Positions 762-45,569 of a stretch of DNA of 64,000 nucleotides are shown here, piece after piece. A program made the position numbers and the translations under genes. The notes below the pieces were generated by a model. The model was not told where the DNA came from. It was given only the letters and a program-made list of their open reading frames with translations, and ran no database searches. Origin of the DNA: a virus (Duplodnaviria > Caudoviricetes); IMG/VR virus record IMGVR_UViG_3300016265_001297, positions 1 to 64,000 of that record. One strand, written 5' to 3'. Position 1 is the stretch's first letter. Each line of letters starts with the position of its first letter.

Positions 762-1886
762 ATGCCAGTAAGAGAAGAATACGCAGAAGAATTAATAACA
801 GCCATTGAAAAAACTTATGGCAAAGGAACTTTTCACAAGGGAGCAGAATCAAAGAGAGTAACTAGAATTCCTACTGGTTCATTCGAACTTGATTATGCCA
901 CAGGCGGAGGAATTCCAATGGGTAGGATTACTTCTTTTTGGGGAAACTATTCATCAGGAAAAACTTTGACAATGCTAAATGTTATGAAGAATGCACAGAA
1001 CATTCATATTTTTGGCGAAATGATGGCAGACTCAAAGATTGAAGGAATTAAGCAACAGGGAGAACAAATTTTAGAAAACTTTCCAGACGGAATGACTATT
1101 GTTTATTACAATATCGAAATGGTCTGGGATAAAGATTTTGCTGAAAGAATTGGAGTTGACACAGACAAGGTATTCATTGTAGAAACTTCTAGGATTGAAG
1201 AAGTTGGAGAAATTGCTTCAAGCTTACTTGGTGCCTACCACCTTCACTGCATTGATTCTGTTTCAGAAGGAACTTCGCTAGACGAACTAAACTCAGATAT
1301 TTCTGACTGGCATATGGGAATTAAAACTAGAGTTTGGAATAAAGCGCTAGACCATATGAAAGATAAAATGGACTTGTACGAGAATTCAATTCTATTTACT
1401 AGACAAGTTACAACAGATATTAGAACTGGAAGCATGCAGCCTAAAGGCGGCAACAAAATGGACCATACTATCGGAATGCAGATTCAGTTTAAGCGAGGGG
1501 GATGGTTATTTAATAGGGATGGCGAACTAAAGCCAGAGGCAGAAAAATCTCCAAACACTCTTTCTGGAAAGGCAGAGGCAGATGGATTTGAAATTATGGC
1601 GAGGGTTGACAAGAGCAGAGTTGGAAGGCCTTTTAGAACTGCTCATATGCAGATTAATCTAAACAAAATGGGAGTAGATCATAATTACGAGCTAGCAAAA
1701 GCAGCCGTATTTTTTCAAGTCGTAGAAAAAAGTGGAAGTTGGTACAAGTTGCCAGAAGGAATAGAATATGATGGAAAGAACAGCGTTCAAGGCAAGGCAA
1801 AACTTGCAGCAGTAATAAGTCAAGACGCTAAGTTAAAAAAGAAAATTATGGATATTATGTATGAGTATATGTGGGAGAACCCTTAG
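762..1886 (+). CDS. recA: RecA/UvsX-family recombinase
   Basis: IPTGSFELDYATGGGIPMGRITSFWGNYSSGKT (Walker A), LHCIDSV (Walker B). Confidence 0.95.
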   Translation: MPVREEYAEELITAIEKTYGKGTFHKGAESKRVTRIPTGSFELDYATGGGIPMGRITSFWGNYSSGKTLTMLNVMKNAQNIHIFGEMMADSKIEGIKQQGEQILENFPDGMTIVYYNIEMVWDKDFAERIGVDTDKVFIVETSRIEEVGEIASSLLGAYHLHCIDSVSEGTSLDELNSDISDWHMGIKTRVWNKALDHMKDKMDLYENSILFTRQVTTDIRTGSMQPKGGNKMDHTIGMQIQFKRGGWLFNRDGELKPEAEKSPNTLSGKAEADGFEIMARVDKSRVGRPFRTAHMQINLNKMGVDHNYELAKAAVFFQVVEKSGSWYKLPEGIEYDGKNSVQGKAKLAAVISQDAKLKKKIMDIMYEYMWENP

Positions 1887-24710: not shown

Positions 24711-24836
24711 GCGCGACAGGACAGCGCCATAGCGCGACAGGACAGCGCCATAGCGCGACAGGACAGCGCCATAGCGCGACAGGACAGCGCCATAGCGCGA
24801 CAGGACAGCGCCATAGCGCGACAGGACAGCGCCATA
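24711..24836. repeat. tandem array of 6 perfect 21-bp units
   Basis: (GCGCGACAGGACAGCGCCATA)x6, 14/21 G+C, no spacers. Confidence 0.98.
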
Positions 24837-25523
24837 TATATACAACGGCCCGGAGGATAAAATATACGAATCAAATAAAAATAATAAAAAAGTTAGATCA
24901 AATGATTTGATTGATTTTTCTGATAAAATGTGGGAAAAATATCAAGATTCTTTTTCAGATTTACAAAAAAGCGACTTTCTAAGATATATCAAAGACCATC
25001 TTTACGAAAATAATCCTATGATAGTTGGCAAAAGCAAGGTAAAAAATCTAGATATTTTTATTGACTACAATCACAACAATAAAGGAAAAAATGAAGCCTA
25101 AACCATTTATTGATATGACAAACGAGCAAGAGGTAATCAGAGAAGCAAATCAAATTTTTGATGGCGATCAATATAAAGCAGAAACTATTGAGCAAGCACT
25201 AAATATGTTTGTTCATAATGGAGAATATGATGAAATTGTTTCTATAGAAGGAAATGAGCCAGAAAATGCCGTAAGGATTAGCGATTGGATTTTGTGGACA
25301 GACTCACAAGGAAATCAAACAGCATTTCAGTATGAGAATGAAGAAACCGCTTCTCATTTGATAGAATGTTATGATAAGGGAATCGAAAATCCGGGGGTAT
25401 AATGTATAAAATCGTTCATAAAAACAATGGCAACACTGTAATTTTTTCCACAAAAGAAAAGAAAGAAGTAGAAGTTAGGCCAGACGGAATAGTTATTATT
25501 AGAAAGAGAAAGGATAAGTAATA

Positions 25524-31137: not shown

Positions 31138-31396
31138 AAAAGAAATAATGATAATGGCAAAAGATAGTGATGGTGAGATAATCGAAAAAGAAAATCAGAT
31201 TGATTATCTTGACATTATAACAAAAGTTACAATCTATTTTGAGAAATACATAAAAAATGCCGAACAGAAAAAGATTGATAAGTTTATTGATGAACTATTG
31301 ATAAACGGTTCAGCAAACTGTATTTCAGAAAACAATAGAAGAATGATTGAGGCAACAGCAATAAAAGCGTAAAAAAGAAAAAAATAAAGGGAATCT

Positions 31397-31424
31397 AGGC
31401 CGAATATATGTTCGGTCTTTTTTT
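31397..31424 (+). terminator. terminator ending the early region
   Basis: AGGCCGAA-TATATG-TTCGGTCT then a T run. Confidence 0.85.
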
Positions 31425-32059
31425 ATGGGAAAATCGCCCCACCTAAGAAAAACCTATAAATATTACCTATAAACTAACTATAAAAGACCTAAAACAAAAC
31501 ACACCGTATATAGCGTAAAACAAATAGATACTTACAGAATAACTCCATATATGGAATAAAAACAAAAATAACCAATAAAATAAATAAAACCTTTCAGTTT
31601 ATAGCAATAATCAAAAGAAAAAGACAATATCTTGCTGAGTTATCTAATCTTTCAGAAAAAATCTTTTGTTCAAACCAAAAAGAAAAAAGAAAAAGTTTGC
31701 GGAAAAAATAAATAAATAAGACATAAACTAATACGAAAGGCATAACATAAGGCAAATAAGATATAGAAAAAAATATTCAAAAAGTTTATACTCAAGTTTT
31801 ATTCGGCGTGATAGTATATGTTTATAGCCAAAGAATAAACCGAGGGCAAAATCTGCCCCGGTAAAAAGAAAGGAAAAAAGAAAGTGATAACTATTACAAT
31901 CACAGAAGAAGAAGTAGAAGTAATCCAGAAGGCTATGTGGAAAGAAGAAGAAGAAATAGATTGGATTATTCAGAGTGAAAGATTCACTAACAAAGCAACA
32001 ATAGAAGCACAAAAGGAAAAGAAAAAAATAAATAGCATTAGAAATAAAATCTGGCAAGC

Positions 32060-32265
32060 ACAATAAAAAAAAGAAAAAATAAATCAGAAAGAAAAAAAGA
32101 AAATGAAAAAATAAATAATAAAAAAAATAAATAAGAAAAAAAATAAAAAGAAAAAAATAATAATAAACATAAAACAAAACAGAAACAAACATAAACAACA
32201 ACAAAGACTAACAGCAAACAGAAACACCTAACAACAATAAGAAAGAATAATAAGAAAGTGAAAGA
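32060..32265. other. extremely A-rich low-complexity non-coding tract
   Basis: Long A runs, very few G or T on the + strand. Confidence 0.85.
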
Positions 32266-32275
32266 ATATATCTGG

Positions 32276-32292
32276 CCCGCCCGCCCCCGCCC
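32276..32292 (-). other. canonical G-quadruplex motif
   Basis: + strand CCCGCCCGCCCCCGCCC = minus strand GGG-C-GGGGG-C-GGG-C-GGG. Confidence 0.75.
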
Positions 32293-32328
32293 TGCCGCCA
32301 TAGCCTACCACATTCTGAGCGTCCGTTG

Positions 32329-32344
32329 TGTGAGATTCGTCACA
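32329..32344. promoter_or_regulatory. CRP/GlxR-type operator
   Basis: TGTGA-GATTCG-TCACA, exact TGTGA-N6-TCACA. Confidence 0.55.
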
Positions 32345-32397
32345 TAACGAATATATGTGAAACTTACCGGACTCCTAACAGTTTCCTAACATTACTT

Positions 32398-32406
32398 TGA
32401 TACTCT
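32398..32406 (+). promoter_or_regulatory. extended -10 promoter, leaderless-transcript geometry
   Basis: TGA-TACTCT, 7 nt before ATG 32414, no SD. Confidence 0.5.
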
Positions 32407-32413
32407 CTCCGGT

Positions 32414-32764
32414 ATGAAGTCCAACAGCGCAGAGAGCGCAGCCGGGAAGACCGGCCAACAGTCAGCCCGAAAGGGAAACAGCCGTCCCGCTCCGGTAATG
32501 AGGAAGCGGGGCAGGCCGAAGGGAAGTACCGATCAGTCCCGCGAGGCCGACCGCGCCGAGTTTCTGGCAGCGGTAGAGAAGGAGGCCGCGAAGGGTCCGG
32601 GGTGGATTGACGAGGCGGTAGAAGCCGTCCAGTCCAGCCGGGAAGGACGGGGCAAACCCCGGTACACCGAGTCCAGCCTACGCCAGACGCTGACCGCCTG
32701 GGGTCGTGAGGCCGGGTTCACCATCCAGCGCCACGAAGAAGGTTGGGCCGCCGAGAAGCGGTAG
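32414..32764 (+). CDS. GC-rich AT-hook protein
   Basis: 116 aa with RKRGRPKG AT-hook. Codon usage strongly GC-biased relative to the rest of the window. Confidence 0.7.
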   Translation: MKSNSAESAAGKTGQQSARKGNSRPAPVMRKRGRPKGSTDQSREADRAEFLAAVEKEAAKGPGWIDEAVEAVQSSREGRGKPRYTESSLRQTLTAWGREAGFTIQRHEEGWAAEKR

Positions 32765-32765
32765 C

Positions 32766-32817
32766 CCGTCCTCGACGGTGGGGTAGCGGTCGGGGTGGAA
32801 ACGCTCCGGCCCTACCC
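32766..32817 (+). terminator. tandem GC hairpins without U-tract after the AT-hook gene
   Basis: CCGTC-CTC-GACGG, then GGGTAG-C-GGTCGGGGT-GGAAAC-GCTCCGGCC-CTACCC. Confidence 0.6.
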
Positions 32818-33127
32818 TATAGCTGTTCATAATTTGTCCCTGAAGTTTCGATATTTTCGTTAGTAGTTTTGATTCATTTGTGTTATAGGTGAAATCGCCC
32901 TATGTAAATAGCGGTTTGGCCCCTTAAAAAATGAGTTTTGCCTTTTAGCAAAGACCTATCTTTCTAGTGATTTACCCTATGTAAATATATATAATATACT
33001 AGGTTTTGAGTATTTTGTTAGTAGTTTTGTGTTAAGATGCTACTGTTTTTCTCAAAAATCGCCCTTAAAACTCTAAGCTTGTCACCATTTGGCTATGTAA
33101 ATGCTTTATTTGGCTTATTATTGTCTA

Positions 33128-44510: not shown

Positions 44511-45569
44511 ATGTCATACGAGATTGATGTATTCGATCAGGCCGCTCTAACTGATGTAATCAATAGGTCATTCCAGTCACGCGAGGATGGTTCTCCGTCA
44601 GTTGGCGCTCAGATTGCGCCGCTACGCCCCGTCCAGTCACGCTCAGTGAAAGTGAACGGTCGAATCGTAAACGGTAACGGCCTCGGTCAGCTTCGTGCGC
44701 CGGGAGCCACACCACCGCTCTACGAGCCTACCGCTAGCTTCGAAGAGTCAGTGATTGAGCTTGCCCTACCAGACGAAATGCATCGCATTAACGAGGAAGA
44801 TTACTTGGCTCTAAGGTCTAACGATGTTAATTACAGGCGTAAGGCCGGAGTTGAGCTAGTAGAGCGGGTTGAGTCTCTAGTAGTAAGGAACATTAACCGT
44901 ACTGAAAAGATGCGGTGGGAAGCATTTAGTGGTGAAGTTACACTTGAGTACGCAAGTGGAGCTACACTAACTGTTGACTATGATGTTCCCGCAACAAACA
45001 AGCCGTCAGCTTCTGTTCCGTGGCAGAACACTGCCACATCAGACCCAATTGCTGACCTAAAGGCTTGGCAGAAACTAACTGCTAATGAGGTTGGCGCTTA
45101 TGGTACTAAGATTCACATGTCTTCTGAGGCATATGATCTTATGATCGCAAGCGACAAGCTAGTTCAGAAACTAACTGGTTCTGAGCGTCCACTATATGTT
45201 CCTACCCGGGATGATGTTCTTTCACTTCTCCGGGCCGGAACCGAAATCATCATTTATGATGGTGGTTGGAGGCCAGATGGCAGTTCCGACCGTGGAATTG
45301 ATGGTCTAAACCGATTCTTGCCAAAGGACAAGGTTCTAATCACTACTGATTACAGCCTTAACGGTCAGCGTATTGCTGATACTCCTGATGGTCAGGTCTT
45401 GGTTGGTAACAGTATTAACTCTGCACCAGTCATTCGACAGGGCGCACAGACTGAAATCATTTACGACCAGATTTCACATGAGCATCTAGTCCGTTACGCA
45501 TCAGCACGAATTGTAAGGCTTCATGAGCCGGGTGCTTTTGTTTACGCAGATGTTGGAACAGTAGTCTAA
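44511..45569 (+). CDS. major capsid protein (lambda E-like family)
   Basis: RTEKMRWEAFSG...VDYDVP...W...SDPIADLKAW; elevated GC/optimised codons. Confidence 0.88.
   Translation: MSYEIDVFDQAALTDVINRSFQSREDGSPSVGAQIAPLRPVQSRSVKVNGRIVNGNGLGQLRAPGATPPLYEPTASFEESVIELALPDEMHRINEEDYLALRSNDVNYRRKAGVELVERVESLVVRNINRTEKMRWEAFSGEVTLEYASGATLTVDYDVPATNKPSASVPWQNTATSDPIADLKAWQKLTANEVGAYGTKIHMSSEAYDLMIASDKLVQKLTGSERPLYVPTRDDVLSLLRAGTEIIIYDGGWRPDGSSDRGIDGLNRFLPKDKVLITTDYSLNGQRIADTPDGQVLVGNSINSAPVIRQGAQTEIIYDQISHEHLVRYASARIVRLHEPGAFVYADVGTVV

Follow-up and report, generated by a model that had tools for sequence, protein, structure and literature searches.

The GC-rich island at positions 32,272–32,820 of the window (the whole 64,000-nucleotide stretch of viral DNA analysed) has a G+C content of 63% and lies in a siphovirus-like contig of 37% G+C. 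With a confidence slightly above even, it is regarded here as a conserved, autonomous moron-type module, which would be transcribed into a leaderless mRNA, hold its own operator in the form of a palindromic box, and encode a winged-helix DNA-binding protein. The motifs listed between these positions by the original prediction are all present where it placed them. Its figure of two-thirds G+C applies to the ORF (0.66; 32,414–32,764) and to the 3′ end of the island (0.70), but not to the 5′ non-coding segment that holds the promoter and the box (0.43; 32,301–32,413), which is preceded by a C-tract (32,272–32,300) of 0.90. The flanks fall to 0.25 on the left and 0.36 on the right, so that the unit (0.63–0.70) stands out from its surroundings (0.25–0.37) in the way expected of a moron. 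In 150-nt windows, the G+C content of the genome averages 0.37 (sd 0.058), and its genome-wide maximum, 0.69, falls inside the island, which is found in a single copy per genome. The unit is located at a junction, where a long plus-strand gene block is followed by a short minus-strand block, and directly to its left lies an A-rich, nearly T-free tract (32,060–32,271, plus strand), which belongs to its context and is perhaps part of the unit.

A homologous island of 70% G+C, embedded in DNA of 30–40% G+C, is found in L005, a 2.2-kb metagenome contig from a different data set; "conserved" refers here to this one comparison of two loci, the phage island and L005. The second unit is also housed at the junction between a plus- and a minus-strand gene block, and the DNA on its left is likewise A/T-rich and gene-free, with an alignment to the phage tract that is only 49% identical due to the low complexity of the sequence. 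The right-hand neighbours differ, being a tRNA-Tyr in the phage and an RmlD-family gene in L005. As an independent contig bears an equivalent unit, the segment is no misassembly, and its earlier description as a self-contained cassette is upheld.

Between the two loci, the non-coding blocks (the C-rich tract, the box, the TANNNT-N7-ATG arrangement, the GAAA hairpin, and the downstream AT-rich repeats) are 80–100% identical, and are better conserved than the ORF. At the fourfold sites of identical residues, the third base agrees in 10 of 29 cases, against 28% expected at saturation, while GC3 is 0.76 and 0.83 in the two ORFs compared to 0.22–0.41 in the phage genes. Despite these saturated fourfold sites, the box, the promoter geometry lacking a Shine-Dalgarno sequence, the GRP arm, and the second hairpin, all of which had been singled out beforehand, are kept in L005. 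Judged from these alignments, the non-coding parts of the unit are under much stronger constraint than the fourfold sites, and its high G+C has outlasted saturating divergence, which makes it an old state and not a fresh import. The fourfold saturation, the lasting excess of about 30 points of G+C, and the lack of a GC-rich donor among 15 billion proteins suggest that the composition is held by selection at the DNA or RNA level or by biased repair.

The left border of the unit (32,272–32,307) consists of the C-rich tract followed by the 18-nt block CCCTGCCGCCATAGCCTA (32,290–32,307), which is identical in L005. The tract carries a G-quadruplex motif on the minus strand (GGG-N-GGGGG-N-GGG-N-GGG; 32,276–32,292), and its three differences from L005 are all located outside the C/G runs, leaving the G-runs invariant. 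Downstream of this border, the palindromic box TGTGA-GATTCG-TCACA (TGTGAGATTCGTCACA; 32,329–32,344), a candidate operator, is the sole exact copy of TGTGA-N6-TCACA in 64 kb, where 0.04 would be expected, and all 17 of 17 nucleotides are identical in L005, including those of the 6-nt spacer. L005 holds a second copy of the box 28 nt downstream, with a GATCCG spacer, which aligns (alignment A2) with a degenerate second box in the phage (32,354–32,371), where a TGTGA half-site is kept and the other half has been lost. This degenerate box overlaps a second inverted repeat, TCACATA-N7-TATGTGA (32,340–32,360). The centre of the box lies at about −77 from the ATG in the phage, and at −68 and −96 in L005, and the two loci differ by some 20 nt in how far the box lies from the promoter. 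The conserved spacer, together with this shift, is more in keeping with a dedicated operator than with a CRP activator site placed in phase. The box also matches the CRP/FNR-family consensus exactly, an observation that speaks against the operator reading. Transcribed into RNA, the box would fold into a 10-bp hairpin (z = −3.2), and the arms of the palindrome retain pairing in the phage copy through a G.U pair, so that an RNA hairpin represents an alternative to a DNA operator.

The putative promoter (32,375–32,406, plus strand) combines a −35-like CTAACA (32,375–32,380) with a TACTCT −10 element (32,401–32,406). The latter belongs to a TGA-TACTCT sequence (32,398–32,406), which is followed by 7 nt and the ATG at 32,414, without a Shine-Dalgarno sequence. 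In L005, the same region reads CTCACA, an 18-nt spacer, TATAGT, 7 nt, and ATG, and therefore a −35-like CTMACA and TANNNT-N7-ATG are common to both loci. A Shine-Dalgarno-like motif precedes about 30 of the 46 other phage ORFs, according to a crude scan inflated by purine richness. The mycobacterial −10 consensus is TANNNT, centred 7–12 bp upstream of start sites (PMC3898074). The geometry of −10 and ATG in the island fits a leaderless mRNA, with a putative transcription start next to the ATG.

Beyond the ORF, the two hairpins described as a tandem are both present and lack a U-tract, but only the second is conserved. The first (CCGTC-CTC-GACGG; 32,766–32,778, plus strand) is small and corresponds to an alignment gap in L005. 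The second (32,779–32,819, plus strand) is capped by a GAAA tetraloop (32,798–32,801), and its 10-bp inner stem and loop are identical in L005 save for one change from U.G to C-G; in this region, the two loci share perfectly matching stretches of 11 and 17 nt. Together, both hairpins have a folding energy of −41.5 kcal/mol (z = −4.0). No U-run follows the hairpin and the terminator scan reports no intrinsic terminator here, and the GAAA hairpin is considered a candidate RNA 3′-end or stability element, or a candidate DNA site. An antisense ORF at 32,678–32,830 was rejected, as its conservation is confined to the hairpin.

The right border of the island is marked by the 12-mer CTGTTCATAATT (32,823–32,834), which occurs only once in the genome and recurs unchanged in L005. 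It is followed by an AT-rich part in common with L005 (32,835–33,075), which is 66% identical between the loci, compared to 43% beyond 33,075. This part holds the repeats GTTAGTAGTTTTG (two copies), AAATCGCCC (two copies), and CTATGTAAAT (three copies), as well as a promoter-like GTGATT-N17-TATAAT (32,967–32,995, plus strand), with TTGATT-N17-TAGAAT at the equivalent position of L005. No stable RNA fold was found in it, and an RNA gene at this place was rejected for the lack of a fold signal.

The gene of the unit (32,414–32,764, plus strand) encodes P0001, a protein of 116 residues, 12.7 kDa, and a pI of 10.1. It is supported by a coding-type G+C pattern (GC1/2/3 of 0.66/0.59/0.76, in the order GC3>GC1>GC2), by the homologues P0002 and P0003, and by an AlphaFold2 model. 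In the family alignment, indels comprise whole residues only, and the 32 invariant columns are mostly found in GRPKGS and in the helix 2-turn-helix 3 region; the gene is thus real and under protein-level constraint. The protein comprises a basic disordered tail (residues 1–32), a GRPKGS arm (33–38), and a winged helix-turn-helix domain (38–116). The AlphaFold2 model, a predicted structure obtained from an input alignment of three sequences, has a block-mean pLDDT of 81–91 across residues 41–116, and consists of a helix (38–58), a strand (63–64), two further helices (66–78 and 86–100), and a β-hairpin with strands 102–106 and 111–115. This predicted topology is the H1-b1-H2-H3-b2-b3 order of winged helix-turn-helix proteins, with H2-turn-H3 as the helix-turn-helix. 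The structural neighbours of the model are winged helices without exception (best Z of 7.0); the best Foldseek matches are to LmrR, with a generic score (E of 0.03), while every search lists further winged helices after it. P0001 is therefore predicted to be a small winged-helix protein that binds DNA and had not been described before.

The original notion of a pure AT-hook or Lsr2-type protein is not supported, since residues 38–116 are modelled as a winged helix-turn-helix, GRPKGS alone is conserved, and Lsr2 gives no Pfam match to P0001 at E values up to 10. P0001 contains RKRGRPKG, and thus an R-G-R-P core flanked by basic residues. However, the hook region reads KRGRPKGS in P0001, but GPGRPKGS and PAGRPKGS in the homologues; whereas GRPKGS is conserved family-wide, the preceding RKR is not, the first Arg being replaced by Gly or Ala, and the core common to the whole family is only GRP. 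The AT-hook family PF02178, whose model is very short, has no Pfam match in P0001.

Among 15 billion proteins, only four belong to the family, and a word-indexed protein search returned the same three clusters and nothing further, either with a single sequence or with a profile. No members were found among 185,579 species genomes, plasmids gave no match, and a profile search of viral contigs and genome contigs revealed no family loci. Cultured phages yielded neither a tblastn match to the protein nor a DNA match to the island or its 10-kb surroundings. The idea of a host-like gene was rejected on these grounds. Pfam, PHROGs, NCBIfam, and PDB sequences hold no meaningful match to the protein, and the tRNA of the window is the sole Rfam match, L005 having none. 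The homologues are all located on very short contigs, such as those of P0003 (703 bp) and P0004 (1664 bp). A motif scan of viral contigs for the 3′ hairpin and the AT-rich block found no further copies. The scan with TTTGTTAGTAGTTTTGTGT gave one match, L006, in an unrelated coding region, and the combined scan for the 5′ motif and the box gave three unrelated genomes (L008–L010), discarded as chance matches.

No related phages were found through the flanking 94-aa protein or the major capsid protein; the terminase search gave one match, to a Microcystis phage (22% identity), and the matches to ThyX are only 57% identical and belong to unrelated contigs. No related phage genome was found, and hence no relative lacking the unit, so that added DNA is only a putative description of it. 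A nearby Rpf-type domain (PF06737) scores 25.8 bits, below the cut-off of 27, and the phage may infect an actinobacterium. WhiB and Lsr2 are absent from the contig, and Lsr2 (PF11774) from the whole 75.9-kb record, whereas a control genome was matched.

In the mechanism proposed for the moron-type module, the mRNA would begin at or beside the AUG, with the TANNNT −10 element lying 7 nt upstream. A dimer of P0001 would bind the 16–20-bp palindrome about 75 nt upstream and regulate its own promoter, and the presence of a conserved recognition helix and a conserved site within one unit is what an autoregulator predicts. The AT-rich repeats immediately downstream may be a further target of P0001, with GRPKGS acting as a putative minor-groove arm, which in the phage copy would be a full HMGA-type KRGRPKGS AT-hook, while the GAAA-capped hairpin would set or stabilise the 3′ end of the transcript. 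During infection, the protein could regulate neighbouring transcription, organise the AT-rich repeats as an architectural factor, or antagonise silencing. A box placed far upstream of the putative promoter is unusual for simple autorepression, which weighs against the module reading. Moreover, a plain moron leaves the persistent high G+C unexplained, as well as the co-conserved AT-rich repeats and C-rich tract.

The regulatory scheme first suggested for the island is different: a host CRP-family site would gate the cassette by cAMP, the GC-rich gene would escape Lsr2-type silencing, and its AT-hook protein would counter-silence or silence the AT-rich phage genome. This scheme is unlikely, although the exact TGTGA-N6-TCACA kept in L005, the canonical KRGRPKGS of the phage copy with its invariant GRP core, and the sub-threshold PF06737 match as a hint at an actinobacterial host are all consistent with it, and an escape from silencing would supply the composition selection that the high GC3 at fourfold saturation calls for. 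On the other hand, CRP sites do not need the conserved 6-nt spacer, the spacing between box and promoter moves by about 20 nt, and the phage has no other such box. In addition, the first Arg of RGRP is missing in both homologues, the protein is predicted to be a sequence-specific-looking winged helix without Lsr2 similarity, and the contig has neither WhiB or Lsr2 nor any cultured relatives found.

A further reading, also improbable, is that the high G+C itself is selected, the unit being an insulated "pioneer" gene of about 68% G+C, with a GC3 near 0.8, that evades AT-directed silencing or cleavage by the host, and whose AT-hook and winged-helix product then counter-silences or organises the AT-rich phage DNA. 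If this were true, base composition would be a heritable regulatory device in a virus.

Equally doubtful is an architectural or roadblock module at a convergence zone, in which the protein, bound to the inverted and adjacent repeats, would halt transcription or replication that converges there or would mark an origin, in a manner similar to the replication terminator protein RTP. In both loci, the unit indeed lies between plus- and minus-strand gene blocks, with an A-rich tract and a G4 motif on one side and iteron-like, region-unique repeats on the other, which are probably DNA sites given that they show no RNA fold. RTP from B. subtilis, a dimeric winged-helix protein of small size, is encoded by a gene whose promoter contains a ter site, through which its expression is autoregulated (PMC10331603). 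However, P0001 has no sequence match to RTP or any initiator among PDB sequences, its structural similarity is of the generic winged-helix kind, with RTP not among the matches listed, and the model lacks the C-terminal dimerisation helix of RTP. In each block, the GC skew merely reflects the orientation of the genes and gives no sign of a terminus or origin, and a replication terminus based on the skew was rejected for this reason.

A small mobile element, made up of the island alone or of all 0.8 kb of the unit, with its conserved ends as recombination sites and the ORF as cargo or as a DNA-binding accessory factor, is quite unlikely. The ends are better conserved than the interior, the right neighbours differ (tRNA-Tyr and the RmlD-family gene of L005), and homologues on very short contigs are typical of assembly-breaking repeats. 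Nevertheless, phage mosaicism suffices for the differing neighbours, and the conservation is blocky and also internal (box and promoter), as predicted for regulatory motifs. The features of transposable elements or MITEs are not found either: searches for terminal inverted repeats and for a clear target duplication gave nothing, there is one copy per genome and not several, neither the unit nor the contig holds a transposase, integrase, or resolvase, and the border sequences TATATCTG and TATAGCTG of the phage copy are unmatched in L005.

An element that is chiefly a structured RNA or DNA (G4, hairpins) with an incidental ORF is very unlikely: the non-coding blocks outdo the ORF in conservation, the hairpins have z values of −3 to −4, and no G-run of the G4 motif varies, but the G+C of the ORF is distributed as in coding sequence, its indels span whole residues, its motifs are conserved, its fold is predicted with confidence, and Rfam families match neither locus. 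Finally, an assembly chimera joining a fragment of a GC-rich organism into the phage contig, which the abrupt composition change on a metagenome-assembled contig might suggest, is rejected as extremely improbable, because L005, an independent contig from another data set, contains the island and the continuing AT-rich sequence on its right, and no GC-rich organism holds a homologue.

Deviant G+C in phage genes is usually taken as a fading footprint of recent transfer, whereas the two saturated copies of this unit keep an excess of about 30 points. Within 0.8 kb, the unit offers a compact test bed, in which a new predicted DNA-binding family is combined with a candidate operator, a start that is probably leaderless, and a G4 motif and AT-rich repeats that are both conserved; taken alone, as an orphan phage regulator, its immediate impact is modest.

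Morons are defined by their own promoter and terminator and by a deviant G+C content (PMC3594210). Like those of the HK97 gene 15 type (PMC3594210), the unit consists of a single gene with a putative promoter of its own and a 3′ hairpin, lies between phage gene blocks, and deviates in G+C. Unlike them, its G+C is no trace of recent import, as it survives saturating fourfold divergence; no donor genome is found in the databases searched, and adjacent non-coding DNA is co-conserved. The unit also resembles the PeSL cassettes of T4-type phages (PMC2839356), where a small gene that evolves fast is flanked by short regulatory sequences, which are conserved and could act as recombination points, but it is single and not arrayed, is GC-rich, holds other motifs, and no exchange event has been observed. 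Similarly, P0001 is small, basic, and RGR-containing, like the Lsr2/CgpS silencers and the phage-borne Lsr2 homologues (PMC8612146, PMC5137423), although it lacks a match to the Lsr2 domain and an oligomerisation domain, and its predicted fold is a winged helix.

Closer in architecture are the PadR/LmrR-like and MarR-like regulators and RTP from B. subtilis, with which P0001 shares a length of about 110–120 residues, a predicted winged helix-turn-helix, and a palindrome just upstream of its own gene. Unlike these proteins, it has no family match in Pfam, NCBIfam, PHROGs, or PDB, its structural scores are generic (E of 0.03; Z ≤ 7), and an N-terminal basic tail with a GRP arm replaces the C-terminal dimerisation helix. 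HMGA-type AT-hooks are built on an R-G-R-P core, and the helix-turn-helix domains of the Hin type carry a GRPR minor-groove arm. The KRGRPKGS of P0001 matches the HMGA-type hook and is placed directly before the helix-turn-helix domain, as the arm of Hin is; unlike HMGA AT-hook proteins, P0001 holds one hook, fused to a folded and probably sequence-specific domain.

The GC-rich island at 32272-32820 would, in a reading that we consider slightly more probable than not, be a moron-like, autonomously expressed module encoding a new GRP-arm winged-helix DNA-binding protein, which regulates itself through a palindrome. The host phage, of siphovirus type and 37% G+C (source record linear, 75,863 bp, estimated as ~70% complete, of which the window covers 1-64000), encodes a large terminase, a portal, a major head protein, a 2134-aa tape measure, ThyX, an ArdC-like protein and a UvsX-like recombinase, together with an Rpf-type domain that remains sub-threshold (PF06737, 25.8 bits vs a cut-off of 27). 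No cultured relatives were found, a DNA search gave no match, and the capsid and terminase proteins reach best identities of only 22-28%.

All the elements listed in the original prediction (CRP-type box, putative leaderless promoter, gene with an AT-hook motif and tandem hairpins) were recovered at their positions. The G+C content is 0.63 across the island (C-tract 0.90, promoter/box 0.43, ORF 0.66, 3' end 0.70) and 0.25 and 0.36 in its flanks, and the genome-wide maximum of 150-nt G+C falls within it (0.69; mean 0.37, sd 0.058). The second peak of the genome (0.64) consists of six perfect 21-bp tandem units (GCGCGACAGGACAGCGCCATA) at 24713-24838, and the third (0.67), at 66270-66430 of the record and beyond the window, of a collagen-like Gly-X-Y repeat (GPAGPQG-type) within a structural gene on the plus strand that probably encodes a tail fibre. 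An unusually high G+C for this phage is also seen at the 5' end of the major head gene (44541-44820), which peaks at 0.62; GC3 of the gene is 0.41 vs 0.22-0.34 in the other genes.

The 116-aa ORF of the island (32414-32764, plus strand) is a real gene. When 1.84 billion cluster representatives were searched exhaustively with HMMER, only two relatives emerged, P0002 (133 aa, 44% identity) and P0003 (104 aa, 47%); including one cluster mate, the family totals four sequences among ~15 billion proteins, and every member except the query comes from a contig of 0.7-2.2 kb. Searches of 185,579 species genomes, of viral contigs, of cultured phages and of plasmids yielded no homologue, so the gene is not "host-like" in the database sense, contrary to what had been proposed. 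The three proteins align with indels of whole residues and 32 invariant columns, and codon-position G+C follows the order GC3 > GC1 > GC2 both in the window (0.76/0.66/0.59) and in L005, the 2192-bp metagenome contig encoding P0002 (0.83/0.68/0.58). Antisense ORFs at both loci (window 32678-32830 and L005 663-884, minus strand), which start with MN..GPERF.PDR, were rejected as genes because they resemble each other only across the conserved hairpin, read in reverse complement, and no further.

The protein matches none of the sequence families searched. Its AlphaFold2 model (block-mean pLDDT 81-91 for residues 41-116) has a winged helix-turn-helix topology, with helices at 38-58, 66-78 and 86-100, a short strand after the first and a final beta-hairpin. 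Structural neighbours (Foldseek, VIA-align, ESM Atlas) are exclusively winged-helix proteins with generic scores (best Z 7.0, E 0.03), including PadR/LmrR, the winged-helix domains of ORC and Cdc6, and the C-terminal domain of MutYX. The N-terminal tail, which is disordered and strongly basic (pI 12), varies in length. Invariant residues are concentrated in the GRPKGS motif (33-38) and the helix 2-turn-helix 3 region. In sequence, the predicted AT-hook of the window copy (KRGRPKGS) is canonical; the corresponding residues are GPGRPKGS and PAGRPKGS in the homologues. What the whole family shares is therefore a GRP arm ahead of the helix-turn-helix domain, which resembles the GRPR arm of Hin.

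Conservation was compared between two loci only, the window and L005. Of 29 fourfold sites at identical residues, 10 agree, a fraction near the 28% that saturation would give. Identity amounts to 70% in the 5' non-coding segment, 57% in the ORF, 79% in the GC-rich 3' end, 66% in the AT-rich stretch to ~33075, and 43% beyond. Judged from these alignments, the non-coding parts are under more constraint than the gene. The conservation comes in blocks, namely CCCTGCCGCCATAGCCTA (18 nt), GTGTGAGATTCGTCACA (17 nt, repeated in L005 after another 28 nt), the hairpin core (11 and 17 nt), CTGTTCATAATT, TTTGTTAGTAGTTTTGTGT (19 nt) and AAATCGCCCTTAAAA. Such blocks, set between spacers that cannot be aligned, indicate that purifying selection has acted on motifs; recent wholesale transfer would predict uniform identity.

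The exact palindrome at 32329-32344 occurs once in the window vs 0.04 expected, and remains unique in the genome with three mismatches allowed. Its spacer is conserved (GATTCG, GATTCG, GATCCG), and the box lies ~20 nt closer to the promoter at one locus than at the other. A host CRP-family protein might bind it, or it might act as an RNA hairpin (fold z = -3.2 to -3.7). The candidate role that fits best is that of an operator for the cassette's own protein, because the conserved recognition helix and the conserved site share one unit. Gating by host CRP with Lsr2 counter-silencing, as originally predicted, is unlikely; Lsr2 and WhiB genes were looked for in the phage and none was found.

Plus-strand genes end at 32066 and minus-strand genes run from 38639 down to tRNA-Tyr (33209-33128), which places the island at the convergence of two gene blocks. 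The unit could be imagined to act there as an architectural or roadblock module analogous to RTP, the gene of which is under autoregulation through a ter site (PMC10331603), although we give this little probability. GC skew follows gene orientation in all blocks, so its local maximum at the island is uninformative on replication. The conserved unit extends past the island to ~33075. Its stretch at 32835-33075 (760-1030 in L005) contains the local repeats GTTAGTAGTTTTG (two copies), AAATCGCCC (two) and CTATGTAAAT (three); GTTAGTAGTTTTG does not occur outside this region, and the others occur elsewhere once each, at 31431 and 16153. A conserved sigma-70-like promoter, GTGATT-N17-TATAAT (32967-32995, plus strand; TTGATT-N17-TAGAAT in L005), is directed into the minus-strand tRNA-Tyr and operon. 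As no significant RNA fold was detected in this AT-rich part, DNA-level sites are likely, and it may hold iterons, operators, or an antisense promoter. Upstream of the island, a gene-free 0.5-kb stretch (31372-31884) contains an intrinsic terminator (31398-31427) followed by AAATCGCCCC and then CCTATAAATATTACCTATAAAC, which echoes the repeats on the right, and a promoter with a leader hairpin (31843-31859) and an SD ahead of a 60-aa ORF (31884-32066).

A small mobile element is a distinctly doubtful explanation. In its favour, the right-hand neighbour of the unit differs, being tRNA-Tyr in the window and an RmlD-family (dTDP-4-dehydrorhamnose reductase) gene without a tRNA in L005; against it, neither integrase nor resolvase genes were found in the phage. 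The RmlD gene adjoins the unit (1049-1879, minus strand; Pfam E 2e-81), and the record of the window offers no more than a distant epimerase-family gene (71020-71340).

The 3' hairpins (32766-32778 and 32779-32819) together reach -41.5 kcal/mol (z = -4.0). Both are present as predicted and lack a U-tract, with no match in a terminator scan, but only the second, whose inner stem of 10 bp is capped by a GAAA tetraloop and shows one U.G to C-G change, is conserved in L005. The loci differ at three positions of the C-rich tract, all of them outside the C-runs, which leaves intact in both a minus-strand G-quadruplex motif (GGG-N-GGGGG-N-GGG-N-GGG, 32276-32292), whose G-runs persist in L005 and whose single-base loops differ; with three changes only, this sparing is suggestive and not significant. 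An A-rich sequence of ~210 nt with hardly any T leads directly into this motif (together 32060-32292); on the minus strand, the two read as a G-rich structure with a very long T-run after it. That the unit acts mainly as an RNA- or DNA-level element is very unlikely. An assembly chimera, finally, is excluded for practical purposes by L005, where an island of 70% G+C again lies in DNA of 30-40% G+C.

As a moron-like module, the cassette would be expressed autonomously from its own signals, and its winged-helix protein would act on the palindrome to control its own gene. Both loci show TANNNT (TACTCT in the window, TATAGT in L005) 7 nt before the ATG, with CTMACA a further 18-20 nt ahead of this hexamer, and no Shine-Dalgarno sequence; most other genes of the phage have SD-like motifs. 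Transcription is predicted to start at the ATG, a geometry in agreement with actinobacterial leaderless promoters, in which the TANNNT -10 element has its centre 7-12 bp before the start site (PMC3898074). Morons are defined by a deviant G+C and their own promoter and terminator (PMC3594210). The cassette goes beyond this definition in that its high G+C has been kept over saturating divergence, with no known donor, and in that the neighbouring non-coding DNA is conserved along with the gene.
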